10,891 nt of DNA from Candidatus Bathyarchaeia archaeon (GCA_038883655.1 JAVZLQ010000010.1:1-10891); one strand, 5' to 3'. Counted from the stretch's first letter, positions 52 to 7,730 are shown. Made by a program: numbers and translations. Notes: generated from the letters alone by a model not told the origin.

Positions 52-2187
52 CTATTTCGCGTATTTCTTTGGATTCTTCTTGAATTCTTCCTCGCACATT
101 CTTGAACAGAAATAGATGACGCGCCCATCATATTCAATTTTGCTGTAGGCTGTATCCGGATCTATTTTCATGCCGCAGACAGGATCCGTAACCAAGCGCT
201 TTTTCTCCATTATCCCTTTCACCACCTCTGGCTCATATTTCCTTAAAGTCTGACTATTTAAGGCGACTATAACAGTGCTTAGGGACATTATTATCGCACC
301 GATGGCTGGCGGTAGATTCACGCCGTAGCCTGCTAGCACACCTGCTGCTAAGGGTATTGTCACCGTGTTGTAGCCGGCTGCCCACCATAGGTTTTGAACC
401 ATTTTAGAGTAGGTTTTGCGGGAAACGTCTATGGCTTTAACCACGTCCCGCGGGTCGTTTCGAACGAGGATTATGTCGGCGCTTTCAATTGCCACGTCTG
501 TTCCAGCGCCTATGGCTATGCCCACATCCGCTGTGACAAGCGCCGGAGCGTCGTTGATGCCGTCGCCTACCATGGCAACGCGGTAGCCTCCGTCTCTTAG
601 AAACTTTATTTTTTCCGCCTTTTTGTCGGGTAAAACTCTGGCGAAATAGTTGTCTATGCCGAGTTCCTTGGCAACCCAGCTGGCAACTTCTTCCGAGTCA
701 CCGGTAAGCATGTAAACCTTTACGCCTCTCTTTTTGAGTTCCCTAACAGCCTCGTAGGATTCTTCCCTAATAATGTCAGCCAAAGCCAAGGCGCCGGCAA
801 GCTTGCCATCAACAACCACAAAGACAACGGTTTTGCCTTGCCTTTGCAACTCCGCTATTTTTGGGTCGTTGACGCTTATGCCCAACTCGTCTAGGAGATT
901 TACGCTTCCAACATAAACCTCGTTTTTTCCAACCTTGGCGTAGGCACCTCGCCCAGGTAGAGCCTTAAATTCTTTGACTTGTGGAATTTTGGCTCCCTTG
1001 TTTCTGGCGTACTCCACTATGGCTTTTGCAATCACGTGCTCTGAGTTGAGTTCAACGGCAGCTGTTAAACTCAAAAGCTTTTCCTCAGACATTTGTGTAA
1101 CGATGTCTGTTACGCCGAACTTGCCAACAGTTAAGGTGCCGGTTTTGTCGAAGACTACAACGTCCACGTCTTTAACCATTTCGAAGGCACGTCTATCCCT
1201 TATGAGGATGCCGCTCTTTGCAGTTATTGATGTGGAAATTGCCACAACCAGCGGTATTGCCAAGCCAAGTGCATGGGGACAAGCAATGACAAGCACTGTT
1301 ACAGCCCTTTCAAGGGCAGCATCTGAACCAGCCAGAAAACTCCATGCTATGAAGGAGGTTATTCCAGCCACAAGCGCCACGTAAAAGAGCAGAGCTGCAG
1401 CCCTATTCGCCAAATCCTGTGTTCGCGAACGGCTTTCTTGGGCTTGTTTGACAAGCTTTATGACCTGCGCTAGATAGGTTTCTTCGCCTATCCTTTCAAT
1501 ACGCACTTTTAGCATGCCTTCGCTGTTTATGGAGCCGCCCACCACTTTGTCGCCGATGGTTTTGCTTATGGGCTTTGACTCCCCAGTCAGCAGCGCCTCG
1601 TTAACCGAAGACGTACCCTCAACGACAACGCCGTCTGACGGTATTTTCTCTCCGGGGCGAACTAACACAACGTCGCCCTTCTGCAGCTGGGCTGTTGGCA
1701 CATCTACGATTTCGCCATTTTTGACCAAGTGGGCTGATGTTGGCATTATGCGGACAAGCTCCTCCAGTGCCATGGAAGCGCCCATAACGCTCTTGGCTTC
1801 AACCCAATGACCCAAAAGCATAACATCAATCAATGTTGCAAGCTCCCAGTAGAAGTCTTTTCCGCTAAAGACAAAGACTGTTCCAAGCGAGTAGAACATA
1901 GCAACTGAAATGGCTACACCGATAAGCGTCATCATGCCCGGCTGTTTAGCCTTAATCTCGTCCGTCAAGCCTTTGAGGAAGGGCCAGCCGCCATAAACAT
2001 AGACTATCAGAGATAACAGTGAAAGGATTTCCTTCTGGAAGGGGATTTTAAGCCACTCTAAGCCAAACCACATCTGAATCATTTCGGAAAGTAGCAAAAT
2101 TGGAACCGTTAACACAAGCGAAACCCAAAATCTCCGCTTAAATTCCCCCACGTGATGGGCATGGTGATGATGACTATGGGTGCTCAA
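52..2187 (-). CDS. copB: Copper-transporting P1B-3 type ATPase (CopB-like) with short His-rich N-terminus and C-terminal YHS/TRASH domain
   Basis: TGES, CPH (IACPHALGLAIP), DKTGT, SEH, TGD, GDGIND, YN and MSLST motifs. N-terminus MSTHSHHHHAHH; C-terminus DPVCGM...YFCSRMC...F. TTG start with GGAGCGGAGG upstream. Confidence 0.93.
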   Translation of the reverse strand: MSTHSHHHHAHHVGEFKRRFWVSLVLTVPILLLSEMIQMWFGLEWLKIPFQKEILSLLSLIVYVYGGWPFLKGLTDEIKAKQPGMMTLIGVAISVAMFYSLGTVFVFSGKDFYWELATLIDVMLLGHWVEAKSVMGASMALEELVRIMPTSAHLVKNGEIVDVPTAQLQKGDVVLVRPGEKIPSDGVVVEGTSSVNEALLTGESKPISKTIGDKVVGGSINSEGMLKVRIERIGEETYLAQVIKLVKQAQESRSRTQDLANRAAALLFYVALVAGITSFIAWSFLAGSDAALERAVTVLVIACPHALGLAIPLVVAISTSITAKSGILIRDRRAFEMVKDVDVVVFDKTGTLTVGKFGVTDIVTQMSEEKLLSLTAAVELNSEHVIAKAIVEYARNKGAKIPQVKEFKALPGRGAYAKVGKNEVYVGSVNLLDELGISVNDPKIAELQRQGKTVVFVVVDGKLAGALALADIIREESYEAVRELKKRGVKVYMLTGDSEEVASWVAKELGIDNYFARVLPDKKAEKIKFLRDGGYRVAMVGDGINDAPALVTADVGIAIGAGTDVAIESADIILVRNDPRDVVKAIDVSRKTYSKMVQNLWWAAGYNTVTIPLAAGVLAGYGVNLPPAIGAIIMSLSTVIVALNSQTLRKYEPEVVKGIMEKKRLVTDPVCGMKIDPDTAYSKIEYDGRVIYFCSRMCEEEFKKNPKKYAK

Positions 2188-2205: not shown

Positions 2206-2652
2206 CTAGCCTTTAAGCTTCTCAAGAATTATTGCGGGACAGATTTTCTTAACCCCTTCTATTGGCCCGATTTTTTCAGATATAAGCCTCGTTAGTTCTC
2301 GGCCGTCTTTTGTCCAGATTTCCGTCATTATCATGTGGTCGCCGGTGGATGTGGCGACGCTTCGGATTTCTTTGAACTCGCAGAGTTTTTGGGCAACCTC
2401 CAAAAGTTTAGGTGGATCCACATCTATGCCAACAATAGCCACGGTGTTTAATCCTATCATCGCTGGGTTTATTTCAACAGTGAACCTTTTTATTACGCCT
2501 TTTTCTTTAAGGGCTTGAACCCTCTTGCGGATTGTGGACTCGCTTAATCTGAGCTTTTGAGCTATCTCTAAAAAGGGAAGCCTTGCATCCTCCTGCAGAA
2601 GCTTTAGGATTTTCTGATCAACTTCGTCTATTTCCGCATTTTTTCGCGCCAT
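2206..2652 (-). CDS. Lrp/AsnC family transcriptional regulator, LrpA/Ptr2-like (148 aa)
   Basis: N-terminal HTH (IDEVDQKILKLLQEDAR..EIAQKL..SESTIRKRV) plus RAM domain with STGDHMIMTEIW and KICPAIILEKL, as recalled for Pyrococcus LrpA and M. jannaschii Ptr2. Start moved from 2913 to ATG 2652 because the extension overlaps the peroxiredoxin gene. Confidence 0.92.
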   Translation of the reverse strand: MARKNAEIDEVDQKILKLLQEDARLPFLEIAQKLRLSESTIRKRVQALKEKGVIKRFTVEINPAMIGLNTVAIVGIDVDPPKLLEVAQKLCEFKEIRSVATSTGDHMIMTEIWTKDGRELTRLISEKIGPIEGVKKICPAIILEKLKG

Positions 2653-2702
2653 TTTCGTATCATCTTGTACGATTTTAGCTGAAATTTGTACGAAAAGCAT
2701 AT
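2646..2702. promoter_or_regulatory. Three phased putative Lrp/Ptr2 binding sites in the divergent lrp / prx promoter
   Basis: 15-mers GCGCCATTTTCGTAT (2646), GTACGATTTTAGCTG (2667) and GTACGAAAAGCATAT (2688), spaced 21 bp. Each is a partial match to the palindrome RTACGA-WWW-TCGTAY. Confidence 0.6.
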
Positions 2703-2707
2703 ATGCC

Positions 2708-2722
2708 TTGAAAGATAAAAAG
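2708..2722 (+). promoter_or_regulatory. Candidate BRE/TATA for the peroxiredoxin operon
   Basis: TTGAAAGATAAAAAG, 34-48 nt before the ATG at 2756. CGAAAAGCATATATG (2691-2705) is an alternative. Confidence 0.4.
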
Positions 2723-2755
2723 ATTGTGGTATACGGAAGTGGAGAAGGATGTAAA

Positions 2756-3418
2756 ATGGAGAAAGTTGAAGAGAAAAAACCGCTTTTGAGTCTCGGCGAA
2801 GTGGTTCCAGATTTTGAGGCGCTGACAACCCATGGCAAGATTAGGCTTTCAGACTTTAAGGGAAGATGGGTTATCCTGTTTTCACATCCCGCTGACTTCA
2901 CACCTGTCTGCACAACGGAGTTTGTGGCTTTCGCTCAAATTTATCCTGAGCTTGTCAAACGCAACGTCCAACTTATAGGATTAAGCATTGACAGTGTCTA
3001 CTCCCACATCGCATGGGTTAAAACCATCAAGGAAAAATTTGGCATAACAATACCATTCCCAGTGATCGCCGATTTAGACATGAAAGTAGCCAGCTTATTC
3101 GGCATGATACATCCCAAACAAAGCACGACAGCAGCAGTTCGCTGTGTCTTTGTAATAGACCCGGAAATGAAATTACGCGCAATGATATATTACCCGCTGA
3201 ATGTAGGTAGAAACATGGACGAGATTTTGAGGCTTATTGACGCGCTACAAACAGCTGACAAGTACAAGGTGGCTTTGCCAGCCAACTGGAGACCCGGCGA
3301 CCCGGTGATAGTGCCGCCTCCAACAACTCAAGAGGATGCTGAAAAACGTTTGCAGGAAGCCGCTCAACAAGGCTACGAGTGCGTTGACTGGTTCCTATGC
3401 AAGAAAAAGCTTCCATAA
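2756..3418 (+). CDS. Peroxiredoxin, Prx6 / archaeal type (220 aa)
   Basis: SHPADFTPVCTTE peroxidatic motif, GRNMDEILR, WRPGDPVIVPP and C-terminal CVDWFLC. ATG 2756 follows purine-rich GGAGAAGGA. Confidence 0.95.
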   Translation: MEKVEEKKPLLSLGEVVPDFEALTTHGKIRLSDFKGRWVILFSHPADFTPVCTTEFVAFAQIYPELVKRNVQLIGLSIDSVYSHIAWVKTIKEKFGITIPFPVIADLDMKVASLFGMIHPKQSTTAAVRCVFVIDPEMKLRAMIYYPLNVGRNMDEILRLIDALQTADKYKVALPANWRPGDPVIVPPPTTQEDAEKRLQEAAQQGYECVDWFLCKKKLP

Positions 3419-3454
3419 ACCTCCTTTTTATGCATTTAATTGAGGTGAAAGTGT

Positions 3455-3871
3455 TTGGTGCAGAAGCTTCGTTCCACAGCTAAGCTTGTGAAAGACTTTC
3501 GAATAAATGTTGACAACGGCAGAGCCCACAGCGTCTGCCTTGACCTACCGCCTGAACTTGGAACAAATATGGGACCCACAGCTCTTGAATTATGCGTAAT
3601 GAGCTATGCGGGCTGTTTCGCAACAATTTTCGCTTTGATGGCTAAGAAAATGAGAGTTCAGCTTAATGACTTGGAAGTTAAACTTGAAGCCGTAAAATCC
3701 GACGAGGCTGGAACCCTAACAGAAGCAGCTTTTGATATCCTCGTGAAAACCGACGCTTCAGAGGAAACAGTTCAGAGAATTTTCAAGCTGACGGTGGAAA
3801 ACTGTCCGGTTGGGAAGCTTTTCGAAAGAGCCAACGTCAAGATCAGCTATAACCTAAAAACAGAAAGATAG
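3455..3871 (+). CDS. OsmC/Ohr family protein
   Basis: D-x-P...G...GPTALE, AGC and NCPVG cysteine motifs; SD GAGGTGA at 3442-3448. Start is TTG 3455 or GTG 3458. Confidence 0.9.
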   Translation: MVQKLRSTAKLVKDFRINVDNGRAHSVCLDLPPELGTNMGPTALELCVMSYAGCFATIFALMAKKMRVQLNDLEVKLEAVKSDEAGTLTEAAFDILVKTDASEETVQRIFKLTVENCPVGKLFERANVKISYNLKTER

Positions 3872-3878
3872 GAGCTAG

Positions 3879-4046
3879 ATGCCTTTGACAAAGTGGGAAT
3901 GCTCGATTTGCGGGTACATTTACGACCCGGTGATTGGAGACCCGGAGCACGGCGTAAAACCCGGAACACCCTTCGAGGCTCTACCTGAAGATTGGGTTTG
4001 CCCAATTTGCGGAGCCCCTAAAGACCAGTTTGTTAAGAAGGAATAG
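3879..4046 (+). CDS. Rubredoxin (55 aa; absent from the ORF track)
   Basis: Manual translation: [55 protein letters not shown], with two CxxCG knuckles. GGAG upstream; TTG 3885 is an alternative start. Confidence 0.97.
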
Positions 4047-4065
4047 TTTTATGGAGGTGAATGCT

Positions 4066-4680
4066 TTGGAGCAGACTAAACTCTATGTTTTGCCGCAGCT
4101 GCTTTACGGCTATGGAGATTTGCAGCCTTACATGTCTGAGGAGCAGTTGCGGATACACCACACCAAACACCATCAAGCCTACGTTAACGGGGCGAACGCC
4201 ATCCTCCAAAGGCTGGACAAAGCTCGCAGGGAAAACCTAGACATCGACGTTAAGGCTACACTTAAAGAGCTTTCATGGAACGTGGCTGGGCATTTGCTGC
4301 ATTCGCTATTCTGGGGCAACCTAGCCCCGCCAAGCAGAGACGGCGGGAAGCCCGGCGGCAAACTCGCCGATAAAATCGCTGAAGAATTCGGAAGCTTTGA
4401 ACGCTTCAAGAAAGAGTTTTCACAGGCAGCTCTAAGCGTTGAAGGCTCCGGCTGGGCAGCCCTAACATTATGTAGGCAGACGGGCCGCCTAATGCTTATG
4501 CAGGTGGAAAAACACAACGTGAACGTTTATCCAATGTTCCGCATACTAATGGTTTTAGATGTTTTCGAACACGCCTACTACATAGACTACAAAAATGACA
4601 GAGCCAAGTTCGTCGAAGCTTTCTGGAACATAGTAAACTGGGACGAAGTCGACAGACGCTTGGAAGAATCCCTAAAATAG
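4066..4680 (+). CDS. sod: Fe/Mn superoxide dismutase (204 aa)
   Basis: [26 protein letters not shown] and DVFEHAYY motifs. GGAGGTGA (4053-4060) lies 5 nt before TTG 4066; the ORF-track start at 4030 overlaps rubredoxin. Confidence 0.96.
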
Positions 4681-4691
4681 GATGAGGGAAA

Positions 4692-5132
4692 GTGGCAAAA
4701 ATTCTAGTACTTTATTATAGTAAGACTGGCAACACTGAGAAGATGGCTAGGGCCGTGGCTGAAGGCGCAAAAACAGTGCAAGGCATCGAAGTGGAATTAA
4801 CCTATCATGTGACGGCGGAGCAGCTGAAGGAGTTTGACGCCATAATTGTGGGGACACCAACATATCACCATGACACAACCATCGACATTAAAAAGCTGTT
4901 TGAAGATGCGGCTGCAAAAAACATAGACTTGAAGGACAAGGCTGGTGCTGCTTTTGGATCCTACGGGTGGAGTGGCGAAGCCCCGAGACTGGTCCTTGAA
5001 ATTATGAAAAACAGGTTTAGTATGGACGTGGCGGAGCCTCCTCTTTTGGCGAAGTACACACCGGACCAAGCGATGCTTGAAAAGTGCAAGGAGTTTGGGC
5101 GGAGAGTTGCTGAGAGGCTTATCCATAAATAG
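4692..5132 (+). CDS. Stand-alone flavodoxin, similar to the FprA/flavodiiron C-terminal domain
   Basis: FMN phosphate loop YYSKTGNTEKMA, GTPTY and AFGSYGWSGEA. GTG start after GAGGG. Confidence 0.92.
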   Translation: MAKILVLYYSKTGNTEKMARAVAEGAKTVQGIEVELTYHVTAEQLKEFDAIIVGTPTYHHDTTIDIKKLFEDAAAKNIDLKDKAGAAFGSYGWSGEAPRLVLEIMKNRFSMDVAEPPLLAKYTPDQAMLEKCKEFGRRVAERLIHK

Positions 5133-5168
5133 GTTAAAGTGGACATATTATGTATGGAGAAAGGGGTT

Positions 5169-5648
5169 ATGCCCTCAAAAAGTGAGCTTTTAAATTTTAT
5201 TAAACGACAGATAGAAGTGGAGAACGAGATTGTTGATTCGCTTAACGAAGCTTTGAAAACTATTGGCAATCCGTCGGTTAGGGGTGTTTTGAAAGGGATT
5301 TCGCTTGATTCTCTAAAGCATGCGGAAATGTATGATGCAGCCTTGAAGCTTTTAACTACAACCCAGCAGGCGCTTGCCCAAGAGCATCTTGACAAGCAGC
5401 GAAGTCTTGTAGAGAAGCATATCCGTGTGGAAGCCGAGCTGATTAAGAAGATAAGTGATATCTTACCAACAGTTGAAAATGAGAAAGTTAAGCTTCTTTT
5501 AACCGCCATACTTGCCGACGAAAGGAGACATCATGAACTTCTGAAAGCGGTTTTGGAAATCATTGTTAGAGGCGAAACAATAACCGAGGAAGACTGGTGG
5601 GACATTCTCTGGAAAAATGTGCCGTTCCACGGAGCACCGGGTGGTTAG
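5169..5648 (+). CDS. Ferritin-like / rubrerythrin-like diiron four-helix-bundle protein
   Basis: Two internally repeated halves: QIEVENE...DSLKH and HIRVEAE...DERRHH. Start uncertain (5139, 5154 or 5169); ATG 5169 follows GGAGAAAGGGG. Confidence 0.82.
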   Translation: MPSKSELLNFIKRQIEVENEIVDSLNEALKTIGNPSVRGVLKGISLDSLKHAEMYDAALKLLTTTQQALAQEHLDKQRSLVEKHIRVEAELIKKISDILPTVENEKVKLLLTAILADERRHHELLKAVLEIIVRGETITEEDWWDILWKNVPFHGAPGG

Positions 5649-5664
5649 CTTACATGCTTCAAAT

Positions 5665-5675
5665 CCCCCTTTTTT
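5665..5675 (+). terminator. Putative oligo(T) terminator of the prx-to-ferritin-like operon
   Basis: CCCCCTTTTTT just after the stop at 5648; similar CC(C)TTTT tracts follow other + strand genes here. Confidence 0.45.
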
Positions 5676-5691
5676 CGTGAAAGTTTTAAAA
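5676..5691 (+). promoter_or_regulatory. BRE/TATA promoter for the bacterioferritin-like gene
   Basis: CGTGAAAGTTTTAAAA: purine-rich BRE plus TTTTAAA, about 25 nt upstream of the SD GGAGGTGA (5716-5723). Confidence 0.55.
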
Positions 5692-5728
5692 TTGAACTTT
5701 AAATAAAACTGGAAAGGAGGTGAATTTG

Positions 5729-6148
5729 TTGGTTTCTAAAAAGTTGTTGGAAATGTTGAATGACGCCATCGCAAGGGAGATGCAAGTCGCTATCCAATAC
5801 ATGTGGCAGCACGTTCAATGGAGCGGAGTTAAAGGCTTCGCCGTCCAAGAAGAACTCAAAAAAGTGGCAATTACAGAGATGAAGCATGCAGAAGCTATTG
5901 CTGAAAGGCTTTTCTATTTAGGCGGGACGCCCACCACAAAGCCAACCGAAATTTTTGTTGGTAAAACCCTTAAGGAAATGATTGAACGAGACATAAAAGA
6001 CGAGGAAAACGCCATAAACCTATACAAGGAGATAATAGCCCAAGCCCAGAAAGAGGGCGATGTAACAACAGCATTCTTATTTGAAGGAATTCTCAAGGAC
6101 GAAGAGGAACACCATGACCTATTCACAACTCTAGCAGAAGAACTATAA
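5729..6148 (+). CDS. Short bacterioferritin-like protein (139 aa)
   Basis: Ferroxidase pattern ARE..QY / TEMKHAE..AERL / DEENAI / DEEEH, with the Bfr heme-ligand Met in EMKH. The ORF-track GTG 5720 lies inside the SD; TTG 5729 gives 5-nt spacing (TTG 5726 possible). Confidence 0.88.
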   Translation: MVSKKLLEMLNDAIAREMQVAIQYMWQHVQWSGVKGFAVQEELKKVAITEMKHAEAIAERLFYLGGTPTTKPTEIFVGKTLKEMIERDIKDEENAINLYKEIIAQAQKEGDVTTAFLFEGILKDEEEHHDLFTTLAEEL

Positions 6149-6172
6149 ACACGCAACTCCATTCCCTTCACA

Positions 6173-6189
6173 CCCTTTTTATTTATTTT
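6173..6189 (+). terminator. Putative T-rich terminator
   Basis: CCCTTTTTATTTATTTT after the stop at 6148. Confidence 0.5.
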
Positions 6190-6263
6190 GACGTATGTTT
6201 CTGCACTAATGAACTAGAGGGGGGAGTAGGGAAATAAGCTGTGAGTGTTTGCCATTTTCTTTG

Positions 6264-6277
6264 CGAAAGTTTAATTT
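6264..6277 (+). promoter_or_regulatory. BRE/TATA promoter for the EncFtn-like gene
   Basis: CGAAAGTTTAATTT shares GAAAGTTT with the promoter at 5679. Confidence 0.45.
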
Positions 6278-6328
6278 GTGCTGAAAACACAGTGGCAAAA
6301 TATAATCGGCATGAAAGGTGAGAAATGT

Positions 6329-6610
6329 ATGTTATCCCAGATGCCTACCAAGATGGAGAAGGTTTCAAAGAAGCCGTTAGACTGTGAAATTTTGAGGGTT
6401 GCTATAATCGCTGAATTGGACGCTGTGAACCTTTATGAGCAAATGGCAGCCGTCGCTAACAATGAGAAGGTCAAGAAAGTGCTCTTAGAAGTTGCCAAGG
6501 AAGAGAAAACCCATGTCGGCGAGTTTCAAGCATTGCTCCTGAAGGAGGATGTAGAGCAAGCCCAAGAGTTGGAAAAGGGGAAAAAAGAAGTCGAGGAAAT
6601 AACAGAATAA
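6329..6610 (+). CDS. Encapsulated-ferritin-like (EncFtn/Flp) two-helix protein (93 aa)
   Basis: EILRVAIIAELDAVNLYEQMA...VAKEEKTHVGEF matches the recalled N-terminal ferritin domain of Pyrococcus furiosus encapsulin. SD AGGTGA (6316-6321) supports ATG 6329 over 6278. Confidence 0.87.
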   Translation: MLSQMPTKMEKVSKKPLDCEILRVAIIAELDAVNLYEQMAAVANNEKVKKVLLEVAKEEKTHVGEFQALLLKEDVEQAQELEKGKKEVEEITE

Positions 6611-6646
6611 GTGTTGAGCGTTTCAATGTATATTCTTAAATAACAA

Positions 6647-6659
6647 CCCTTTTATTTTT
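6647..6659 (+). terminator. Putative T-rich terminator
   Basis: CCCTTTTATTTTT after the stop at 6610. Confidence 0.4.
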
Positions 6660-6696
6660 AACACGCCACATGCTGAACATTAAGTGATTAAGAGAA

Positions 6697-7152
6697 ATGA
6701 TGTGGAAACACTTAATTGGAATCCTTATACAATCGCTGCTGGCCAGCGCTAAACTAGACTGGCACTGGGGAATGAGAGAAGGCCTAACGCTGCTTTTCGC
6801 TCTTGCCTTGTTCTTTATAGAACTGTTTGTGCTGGCGGTTCTGCTTTACCTTGCAGGCTTAATTGTCGTCGGCAAAAAGCGTGCATTGTTTTCAGACGCC
6901 TTTATAATAGCGCTTCTTGGAACAGTGCTGTCAACACTTTTTGTGATCTTTCTTCCAAACCTCATCGCGCTACTGCTCATAGTTGTTACATGGCTGTTAC
7001 TGATAAAACGCTTATTTGAAACAGGCTGGCTTGGCGCCATCGCCGTAGGCATACTGGCCATCTTAATCTACTTGGCAATCCTCATGCTGTTAGCCTTCGT
7101 CCTCGGGCTTCTGGGCTGGATAACCCGGTGGCTCACTACTATACCCTTCTAG
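6697..7152 (+). CDS. Hypothetical membrane protein (about 4 TM helices)
   Basis: Long hydrophobic segments separated by short basic loops (GKKRA, IKRLFETGW). Start may be 6697, 6700 or 6772. Confidence 0.75.
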   Translation: MMWKHLIGILIQSLLASAKLDWHWGMREGLTLLFALALFFIELFVLAVLLYLAGLIVVGKKRALFSDAFIIALLGTVLSTLFVIFLPNLIALLLIVVTWLLLIKRLFETGWLGAIAVGILAILIYLAILMLLAFVLGLLGWITRWLTTIPF

Positions 7153-7175
7153 AGACAACAAGCGAGGTTTAACTG

Positions 7176-7730
7176 TTGTCAGAATCTAAGAAGCACACAG
7201 CCTTGCTGGGCTTAGTCTTCCTCGCTTTTTTGCTTTTATCATCCTACGAAAACACTGTTTTCTTCAATCTTTTGTTGAGAGAAATCCTCAAAAACCAGTT
7301 TTTGGCTGTTGGAACGCTTTTGTTACACAACCTCCTTGTGGTCTCGCTTATTTTGCTTGGCATGAGCTTTTACGTCAGCCTCGTGCAATCTGGATTTTTT
7401 AGAAGAGAAAAACACTCTCACATAGTTTTGGAGCACCCGAGAATATTCGCCCTCGTTTTTACAGTGGTGGTAGTTTTCCTAAGCATATTGAGGGGGTGTA
7501 CCCTTATATATGGCGGAGTTAGCCTCGAGACCTTACCTGCAATACTTCTGATAAGTACACCAATCGGCTTGGTGGAGGGCTACGGCATATACACAACAAT
7601 AAAGAAGACGCTAAGCCAAACAATGAAGACAAGAGACCTGGCCTTCATTTACAGTATTTTTCTAGCTGCAGCGGTGTTAGAGGTAACCTTCATAAACGTT
7701 CTCATTCTAGTTTTAAGGCTGTCCGCCTAA
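7176..7730 (+). CDS. Membrane protein, possibly divergent SpoIIM (DUF95) family
   Basis: About 5 hydrophobic segments; HN, PIGLVE and AAVLE resemble SpoIIM N / PHGxxE / AAxIE motifs. TTG start after GAGG. Family assignment is tentative. Confidence 0.65.
   Translation: MSESKKHTALLGLVFLAFLLLSSYENTVFFNLLLREILKNQFLAVGTLLLHNLLVVSLILLGMSFYVSLVQSGFFRREKHSHIVLEHPRIFALVFTVVVVFLSILRGCTLIYGGVSLETLPAILLISTPIGLVEGYGIYTTIKKTLSQTMKTRDLAFIYSIFLAAAVLEVTFINVLILVLRLSA

Follow-up and report, generated by a model that had tools for sequence, protein, structure and literature searches.

A conserved archaeal locus in which a Ptr2/LrpA-type regulator is likely coupled to a divergent oxygen-defence operon

Introduction

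An archaeal oxidative-stress operon that faces its own regulator is known from Methanothermobacter, where the redox-sensitive MsvR is encoded divergently from fpaA-rlp-rub. We describe here a locus of similar layout, built around a regulator of another family, Lrp/AsnC, in a 10,891-bp contig of an uncultured archaeon from a hot spring, deposited under the name Candidatus Bathyarchaeia archaeon (GCA_038883655.1, JAVZLQ010000010.1); this contig, analysed over its entire length, is the window of the present text. The described proteins closest to this regulator are Ptr2 of Methanocaldococcus jannaschii and LrpA of Pyrococcus furiosus. Ptr2 and LrpA are the textbook models of activation and repression in Archaea, with a physiological signal still to be found (PMC2995911). 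LrpA represses by blocking recruitment of RNA polymerase, and Ptr2 activates via the TATA-binding protein, TBP (PMC7830388). The targets listed are fdxA, rb2 and rbr for Ptr2, and vor/por for LrpA, while activator sites are situated upstream of the transcription factor B recognition element (BRE), at a distance of a few base pairs, with spacings of two or three helical turns (PMC2995911). Lrp-type proteins recognize 13-bp boxes of the form abcde-W3-e'd'c'b'a', read by a residue-to-base recognition code: GGACGA-W3-TCGTCC for Ptr2, GTCGA-W3-TCGAC for LrpA and TACGA-W3-TCGTA for TvFL3 (Yokoyama et al., PMC2715240).

The locus of the window is real and conserved, and it is likely best understood as a local regulator of the Ptr2/LrpA type coupled to an oxygen-defence operon. 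A sequence-only reading of this DNA had gone further, proposing an oxygen-defence and iron-sequestration island under control of a Ptr2 orthologue; the regulator type, the gene content and the linkage stand, and other parts of the proposal had to be revised.

The regulator and the operon that it faces

Open reading frames (ORFs) were called on the window and scanned with the Pfam and NCBIfam profiles. The genes directly concerned are the following.

52 to 2187, minus strand: copA, copper-exporting P1B-type ATPase (TIGR01511, 614.4 bits, above the cut-off of 397)
2206 to 2652, minus strand: lrp, Lrp/AsnC regulator of 148 amino acids (PF13404, 60.4 bits, and PF01037, 53.6 bits, both above their cut-offs)
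2756 to 3418, plus strand: prx, peroxiredoxin of the archaeal Prx6 type, with which the operon begins (AhpC-TSA and 1-cysPrx_C; NCBIfam NF009668, 322.5 bits, above the cut-off of 211)
3455 to 3871, plus strand: osmC, thiol peroxidase of the OsmC/Ohr family (PF02566, E 1.3e-18; every NCBIfam subfamily match below its cut-off)
3879 to 4046, plus strand: rubredoxin (NF045768, 93.9 bits, cut-off 90)
4066 to 4680 (alternative start 4051), plus strand: sod, Fe/Mn superoxide dismutase, SOD (Pfam and NCBIfam)
4692 to 5132, plus strand: short-chain flavodoxin (Pfam cut-off reached; TIGR01753, 81 bits, below the 123-bit cut-off)
5169 to 5648, plus strand: ftlA, ferritin-like four-helix-bundle protein, last gene of the tight operon (weak and partial Rubrerythrin match, E 1.2e-5)

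The lrp and prx genes diverge across an intergenic region of 103 bp. Every gene named beforehand was found in its place with a name that the profiles back, and the gaps of 36, 7, 19, 11 and 36 bp between the six tightly spaced genes, prx to ftlA, each preceded by a ribosome-binding site resembling GGAGGTGA, were recovered. The gap of 19 bp holds if sod begins at the likely start TTG 4066, five bases past the GGAGGTGA motif; with the alternative ATG 4051 it shrinks to 4 bp. On the other strand, copA lies 18 bp 3' of lrp in the same orientation and carries its own GGAGG ribosome-binding site, so that the two genes are likely to form an operon. Its product has a histidine-rich N-terminus and, at the C-terminus, a YHS domain.

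The regulator combines an AsnC-type helix-turn-helix with a RAM (AsnC_trans_reg) domain, which places it in the Lrp/AsnC family. Its best match among solved structures is P. furiosus LrpA (1I1G), at 166 bits, the next entry of the PDB reaching 108; the alignment is gapless over residues 8-147, with some 80 of 140 positions identical (about 57%, counted from the match line). Both proteins have the RAM motifs S-x-GDHMIM, IW-KDG and CPAIILEKLK, the window protein carrying GDHMIM..W at 104-113 and CPAIILEKLK at 138-147. While LrpA could be compared through this PDB alignment, Ptr2 had to be approached through its published residues and through a protein of Methanocaldococcus sp. 28A (locus L150), which came from a second genome scan, made with the subfamily alignment; neither M. 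jannaschii nor P. furiosus is among the loci. The L150 protein has the six published recognition residues of Ptr2 (Y-S-E-S-S-R), is 58.6% identical to the window regulator, shares with it GDHMIM..W and C-P-A-I-I-L-E, and is the sole match in its genome at E<=0.001. Its gene diverges from that of a 2x[4Fe-4S] ferredoxin and converges with genes for rubrerythrin-like, hemerythrin and flavodiiron proteins. The next paralogue in the bin of the window is 32% identical and falls into a separate clade (SH-aLRT 86/96). Taken together, the alignments support placing the regulator in the LrpA/Ptr2 subfamily, as had been proposed.

To call it a Ptr2 orthologue would be too strong, because the phylogeny is poorly resolved, two of the six recognition residues differ and the LrpA equivalog cut-off is missed. 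Where Ptr2 has Y24, S34, E35, S36, S37 and R39, the window protein has F27, S37, E38, S39, T40 and R42, hence four identities in six. Its best family match, the LrpA equivalog NF040820, stops at 180.5 bits against a cut-off of 250, a value exceeded in none of 14 control genomes, M. jannaschii included. In a quick IQ-TREE reconstruction (116 rows by 146 columns) 62 of the 113 inner branches stayed open, and neither the window regulator nor L150 belonged to a starred set. A protein homology search with the regulator returned relatives of the Bathyarchaeia type only, and a search of representative proteins with two cluster look-ups gave metagenomic representatives, none with the Ptr2 signature.

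The RAM motifs are invariant across 125 unique subfamily sequences, an invariance that is partly built in, since the same peptides served as search patterns for the loci. Cys138-Pro139 is found in 118 of these 125 sequences, with arginine at position 138 in seven, and Cys91 in 77, being mostly a trait of Bathyarchaeia (70 of 73). A universal Cys91-Cys138 disulfide switch is thus unlikely. The seven Arg138 members (L114, L115, L117, L120, L121, L128 and L156) are of the Hydrothermarchaeota type, and are still paired with rubrerythrin.

Linkage with oxygen-defence genes across Archaea

A first set of 80 loci, from as many different assemblies, was found with the window regulator in a collection of species-representative genomes, and their neighbours were identified by tblastn with the proteins of the window and of its second copy (see below), together with Pfam scans of 56 candidate ORFs. 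The divergent neighbour is an oxygen-defence or redox gene in 72 of the 80: peroxiredoxin (46 loci), rubrerythrin (19), OsmC (4), and rubredoxin/SOD, ferritin and a flavin reductase-like protein (one each). It is unrelated or without family in four loci (L032, L060, L073, L078), and not assessable in four others (L057, L071, L076, L080). The order prx-osmC-rub-sod-fld-ftlA-bfrL, where bfrL is the ferritin-like gene that follows ftlA, is kept in 17 of the 80 loci (L002-L018), L001 being cut by the end of its contig; as these belong to different assemblies, the arrangement exceeds what chance would produce. On the 3' side of lrp, 22 of the 80 loci have copA in the same orientation, at most 150 bp away, and in 16 a two-domain protein-disulfide oxidoreductase takes its place.

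The second set comprises the 47 loci of the alignment-based scan that are not titled Bathyarchaeia. A redox or oxygen-defence gene is the divergent neighbour in 20 of them: rubrerythrin (13 loci), ferredoxin (3), desulfoferrodoxin, that is, superoxide reductase or SOR (1), a flavodiiron-like protein (1), and a flavin reductase-like protein (2), followed in Aciduliprofundum by genes for rubrerythrin, a flavodiiron protein, ferritin and SOR. Another 20 loci, mostly of anaerobic methanotrophic archaea (ANME-2) and Methanosarcinales, have a neighbour without Pfam family, three have unrelated genes, and four were not assessed. The pairing recurs in Bathyarchaeia, Hadarchaeota, Hydrothermarchaeota/Pyrohabitans, Thermoplasmatota and Methanococci; the ANME-2/Methanosarcinales loci of the second set showed no case of it. 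In six of these (L086, L088, L090, L093, L095 and L097) the regulator is divergent from a conserved protein of 233-236 amino acids without Pfam family. The linkage expected from the sequence-only reading is therefore kept well beyond close relatives (72 of 80, and 20 of 47 outside Bathyarchaeia). A full-text search of the literature, covering few subscription journals, turned up no account of oxygen-defence operons that have this subfamily as their conserved neighbour, nor of this island in Bathyarchaeia.

A candidate operator and two putative promoters

The recognition residues F-S-E-S-T-R predict, by the published code (PMC2715240), a half-site T[A/G]CGA. In 80 upstream segments of 112 nt this half-site occurs 111 times, against 22.9 +/- 4.5 (maximum 40) in 500 shuffles. 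Among 124 unique 130-nt regions upstream of subfamily genes, 55 contain the core CGA-W3-TCG in its exact form, when shuffles give 0.39 (maximum 2) and segments taken at random from these loci 1.17 (maximum 5); with at most one mismatch it is present in 104 of the 124, as compared with 8-11 in controls. The boxes played no part in the choice of the loci. Within the region shared by lrp and prx we find the following elements.

2647 to 2659, 2668 to 2680 and 2689 to 2701, no strand: candidate operator of three 13-bp boxes, each built around an A/T triplet and having one half-site (TACGA/TCGTA) that is perfect
2697 to 2706, no strand: TATA-like GCATATATGC, putatively that of lrp, in a block conserved in 19 close relatives
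2714 to 2722, no strand: TATA-like GATAAAAAG, putatively that of prx, in a block conserved in 19 close relatives

Two helical turns, or 21 bp, separate the successive centres of the boxes (2653, 2674 and 2695). The two TATA-like elements stand back to back. All three boxes lie downstream of the lrp TATA, and the outermost ends about 5 bp before the BRE/TATA of prx. The latter element is followed, 18 nt on, by the ribosome-binding site GGAGAAGGA, the same geometry as in the promoter of bfrL. Several close relatives have an additional exact-core box between the prx TATA and the prx ribosome-binding site. As far as can be judged from position, this geometry would suit equally a regulator that represses itself, one that activates the divergent operon or one that represses both units. 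Of the earlier statement that the regulator controls the island, the boxes of the expected family type in the shared region are what stands, and control itself can be put forward as probable rather than established.

Transcription units and RNA

Downstream of ftlA the island continues with other genes on the same strand, before the orientation changes.

5720 to 6148 (ORF; likely start TTG 5726), plus strand: bfrL, small ferritin/bacterioferritin-like protein (PF00210, E 3.7e-30)
6329 to 6610, plus strand: encF, EncFtn-like diiron protein (PF22277, 34.8 bits, cut-off 27)
6697 to 7152 and 7176 to 7730, plus strand: two membrane proteins without family match in Pfam or NCBIfam
Next on the contig, minus strand: NAPRT, then class II ribonucleotide reductase (RNR)

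Both membrane genes are syntenic with the island in related loci. The second is convergent with NAPRT, the two overlapping by 18 bp at 7713-7730. The larger gaps were aligned across 14-18 close relatives, and bfrL, encF and the first membrane gene, mem1, each proved to be preceded by a conserved TATA block some 20-25 nt ahead of the ribosome-binding site.

5672 to 5691, plus strand: bfrL promoter TTTTCGTGAAAG-TTTTAAAA, with a TATA block kept in 18 sequences
6252 to 6275, plus strand: encF promoter CCATTTTC..TGCGAAAG-TTTAAT, with conserved TATA and upstream block
6647 to 6659, plus strand: TATA CCCTTTTATTTTT of mem1, a conserved block

The predicted units are therefore lrp-copA, the six-gene prx operon and at least three more (bfrL, encF and the membrane genes), those last being separate because each has a conserved TATA of its own; the island can no longer be taken as one unit. 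Motifs containing T-C-G stand beside the BREs of bfrL and encF, with moderate conservation only, and bfrL, encF and the membrane genes may or may not belong to the regulon of the prx operon.

Upstream of the encF TATA (6215-6275), relatives L007-L018 keep an inverted repeat, GAAAATGG..N12-16..CCATTTTC, and some, such as L009, add a palindrome, TCGCA-TCT-TGCGA; these may be sites for another factor. Loci L003 and L013 have an insertion of about 300-400 bp between bfrL and encF, resembling a small gene on the opposite strand. Inside the 36-bp gap between prx and osmC stands a TATA-like CTTTTTATGCATTTAAT (3424-3440), some 26 nt ahead of the start of osmC, from which a leaderless internal transcript could arise.

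Four of six RNA runs were mapped, two of them yielding nothing. A stranded metatranscriptome contributed 131 reads, of which 108 were 90-95% alike to the window and were therefore derived from relatives; its first mates are on the plus strand over copA and lrp and on the minus strand from prx to bfrL, with the flip at the divergent region. A single RNA contig crosses the junction of prx and osmC (3372-3477), and prx is the top RNA signal in the metatranscriptome contigs of relatives, with a word depth of 245 against 5-27 (one run). What follows from the RNA is that transcription of homologous loci takes place in nature and runs in the directions expected, and nothing beyond this.

How the locus may work, and what else could explain it

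We propose that the LrpA/Ptr2-subfamily regulator acts locally, on the 103-bp region that it shares with the prx operon, and we give this reading a probability of about 0.65. Dimers of the Lrp oligomer would occupy the three phased boxes. Lying downstream of the lrp TATA, they would act from the position where P. furiosus LrpA blocks recruitment of RNA polymerase at its own promoter, and the outermost, beside the BRE/TATA of prx, from the position where M. jannaschii Ptr2 recruits TBP. A single protein-DNA complex would thus couple lrp-copA with the six-gene operon of the opposite strand, an operon expected to supply removal of peroxide (Prx, OsmC) and of superoxide (SOD), as well as two small electron carriers; the whole might then respond to oxygen or to an oxidant.

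Several observations weigh against this proposal. Linkage is not universal, as witnessed by the 20 second-set neighbours without Pfam family and the three unrelated ones among 47, and a subfamily member (E<=1e-30) is present in only 31 of 121 sampled genomes of the order of the window. The sequences behind the enrichment counts are related and not independent, so that these counts overstate the support. None of the boxes of the window has the exact CGA-W3-TCG core, the best having one mismatch, and the window has only a degraded form, ..ATTTCAG.., of the box that close relatives conserve most (..AAATTCGG..). The conserved TATA boxes of bfrL, encF and mem1 keep these genes apart from the operon. 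The RNA is thin, with a depth of at most 7, two runs without reads, 108 of the 131 reads coming from relatives, and zero depth in the bins 5097-5460 and 6189-7280. Finally, P. furiosus LrpA is established as an autorepressor, with vor/por as its listed targets (PMC2995911).

This last point leads to the alternative that survives best, improbable as we hold it: the regulator would only control its own synthesis, the antioxidant genes being constitutive or under another factor. Negative autoregulation is the in vitro result reported for LrpA (PMC7830388), a box downstream of the lrp TATA is where an autorepressor would sit, and the high level of prx RNA is what one would see for a highly expressed housekeeping peroxidase. 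Such a limited role leaves unexplained, however, why the regulator is accompanied across phyla by an oxygen-defence partner of changing identity (peroxiredoxin, rubrerythrin, OsmC, SOR, flavodiiron protein), and it sits badly with the listing of fdxA, rb2 and rbr as targets of Ptr2, which belongs to the same subfamily (PMC2995911).

Slightly less probable again is a metal-homeostasis unit, in which the regulator would govern itself and the co-transcribed copA, sharing a region with prx without regulatory meaning. The RAM domain of the regulator, where CopR has a metal-sensing TRASH domain, speaks against this, as do the 58 of 80 loci where copA is missing from that place when 72 have an antioxidant divergent neighbour, and the 16 with a protein-disulfide oxidoreductase instead. 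It draws its appeal from the spacing of 18 bp on one strand, with a separate Shine-Dalgarno sequence for copA, from the 22 loci that keep copA 3' of lrp, from the position of all three boxes on the lrp side of the lrp TATA, and from the precedent of CopR, an archaeal copper regulator with an Lrp-type helix-turn-helix that adjoins copA (PMC7830388). That we deal with an ordinary feast/famine Lrp, responding to amino acids and acting on metabolic targets elsewhere in a neighbourhood of inherited synteny, is very improbable: the family name, the domain architecture and the label 'regulator for asnA, asnC and gidA' that JGI gives to close relatives would fit, but the prediction for both LrpA and Ptr2 is that they bind no amino acid (PMC2995911), no gene of amino-acid metabolism is adjacent in the loci examined, and synteny alone does not account for a linkage across five phyla with differing gene orders.

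Local action on the shared region thus being our preferred reading, we may consider a wider proposal, tentative and in our view unlikely: the LrpA/Ptr2 subfamily would be a pan-archaeal regulator of oxygen and redox defence, a functional counterpart of PerR and OxyR of bacteria, in which the RAM domain was remodelled so that the invariant G-D-H-M-I-M and a Cys-Pro close to the C-terminus perceive, in place of an amino acid, a redox carrier, a metal or an oxidant. Were it true, this remodelling would explain the missing effector of LrpA and Ptr2, as well as the peroxiredoxin, rubrerythrin, SOR, flavodiiron and ferredoxin neighbours found in five phyla. It is worth emphasizing that, whatever the fate of this proposal, uncultured lineages repeatedly show the subfamily next to oxygen-defence genes, its type of operator travelling along; an in vitro result obtained with a single organism becomes a general hypothesis that can be tested, with a concrete DNA fragment and a concrete protein.

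Iron proteins and life with oxygen

The label of iron sequestration has to be weakened, because no encapsulin shell was found, bfrL matches a general ferritin domain only and ftlA is without a solved relative; it now rests on one small protein of the ferritin family. The encF product matches the EncFtn domain of P. furiosus (5N5E, 89.6 bits), and the shell protein (PF04454) that completes an EncFtn-encapsulin system was found in none of the five genomes with this type of island, of which the completeness is known for G080 only (94%); a control search found the shell in three well-known genomes. The best PDB match of bfrL is a 139-residue 'bacterioferritin' (105 bits), yet the bacterioferritin profile TIGR00754 is missed (70.3 bits, cut-off 125.55), leaving the general PF00210. 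For ftlA, the PDB search gave no real solved relative, and its protein-atlas clusters consist of Bathyarchaeota proteins, with Rubrerythrin annotated, in part, on 21-39% of the members.

The flavodoxin and ftlA genes (4692-5648) travel as a pair, adjacent also in L023, L033, L054 and L065, and directly beside a second copA in the main genome of the bin (G000:C5:65767-68933). They may make up a flavodoxin-dependent diiron enzyme.

A search of the same five genomes for heme-copper oxidase and for cytochrome bd found neither, in agreement with the anaerobic or microoxic archaeon assumed at the outset, and the picture fits that of an anaerobe exposed to oxygen. For Bathyarchaeia, we would have a compact module for survival in oxygen, organized around SOD and Prx, where no terminal oxidase was found.

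Origin of the contig

In the species-representative collection, the closest loci are all titled as metagenome-assembled genomes of Bathyarchaeia or Bathyarchaeota. The window is the entire contig C10 of a bin, G000, made of 19 contigs, and nearly every one of its genes, RNR and NAPRT included, is duplicated on the five large contigs at 64-86% amino-acid identity. Twelve of the 14 small contigs, C10 among them, likewise duplicate genes of the large ones (66-86% identity), and these are slightly richer in G+C (0.44-0.475, against 0.43). Two copies of the regulator exist in G000 and one other of the 121 sampled genomes of the order, and nowhere else among them. As judged from these duplications, C10 is probably a mis-binned fragment of a second, related species, and the bin looks chimeric; its own-genome context is therefore unsuitable for the study of C10.

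The main genome has a version of its own (G000:C2:44600-52800, part of which is covered by L082). There, a rubrerythrin-prx-osmC operon is divergent from a regulator 73% identical to that of the window; a two-domain protein-disulfide oxidoreductase follows this regulator, with sod, encF, rubredoxin and RNR nearby. This layout is common to L038, L041, L042, L045, L047, L051 and L053.

Relation to known systems

The likeness to MsvR is one of layout: in both cases a small regulator faces an archaeal oxygen-defence operon with rubredoxin among its members. The protein belongs to another family, the window regulator matching the NCBIfam MsvR profile marginally and in the helix-turn-helix only (E 8.6e-4, 19 bits against a cut-off of 220).

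CopR of P. furiosus is likewise an Lrp-like, octameric regulator beside a copper ATPase, acting on divergent promoters (PMC7830388). It has TRASH, whereas the window protein has RAM and neither TRASH nor a histidine tail; and while CopR is divergent from copA, the copA of the window lies downstream on the same strand, with the YHS/TRASH-like domain on CopA itself.

The negative autoregulator LrpA (PF1601, 1I1G) is the closest solved relative, about 57% identical over 140 residues, and again the boxes are placed downstream of the TATA of the regulator gene itself, with the core of GTCGA-W3-TCGAC in common. The differences are at residues 36/37, S-T in the window protein and T-A in LrpA, in the missed NCBIfam equivalog cut-off, and in the suggested targets, vor/por and not oxygen-defence genes (PMC2995911).

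With Ptr2 (MJ0723), the TBP-recruiting activator, two of the six recognition residues are changed in the window protein (F for Y, T for S), and the putative targets are of an aerobic type (SOD, Prx, OsmC) where those of Ptr2 are ferredoxin, rubredoxin-2 and rubrerythrin. The subfamily motifs (GDHMIM..W, CPAIILE) are common to both, as seen through L150; the window regulator and L150 each have small redox and oxygen-defence genes as divergent or adjacent neighbours; and the type of site, CGA-W3-TCG, is the same, with one box separated from the BRE of the target by a few base pairs.

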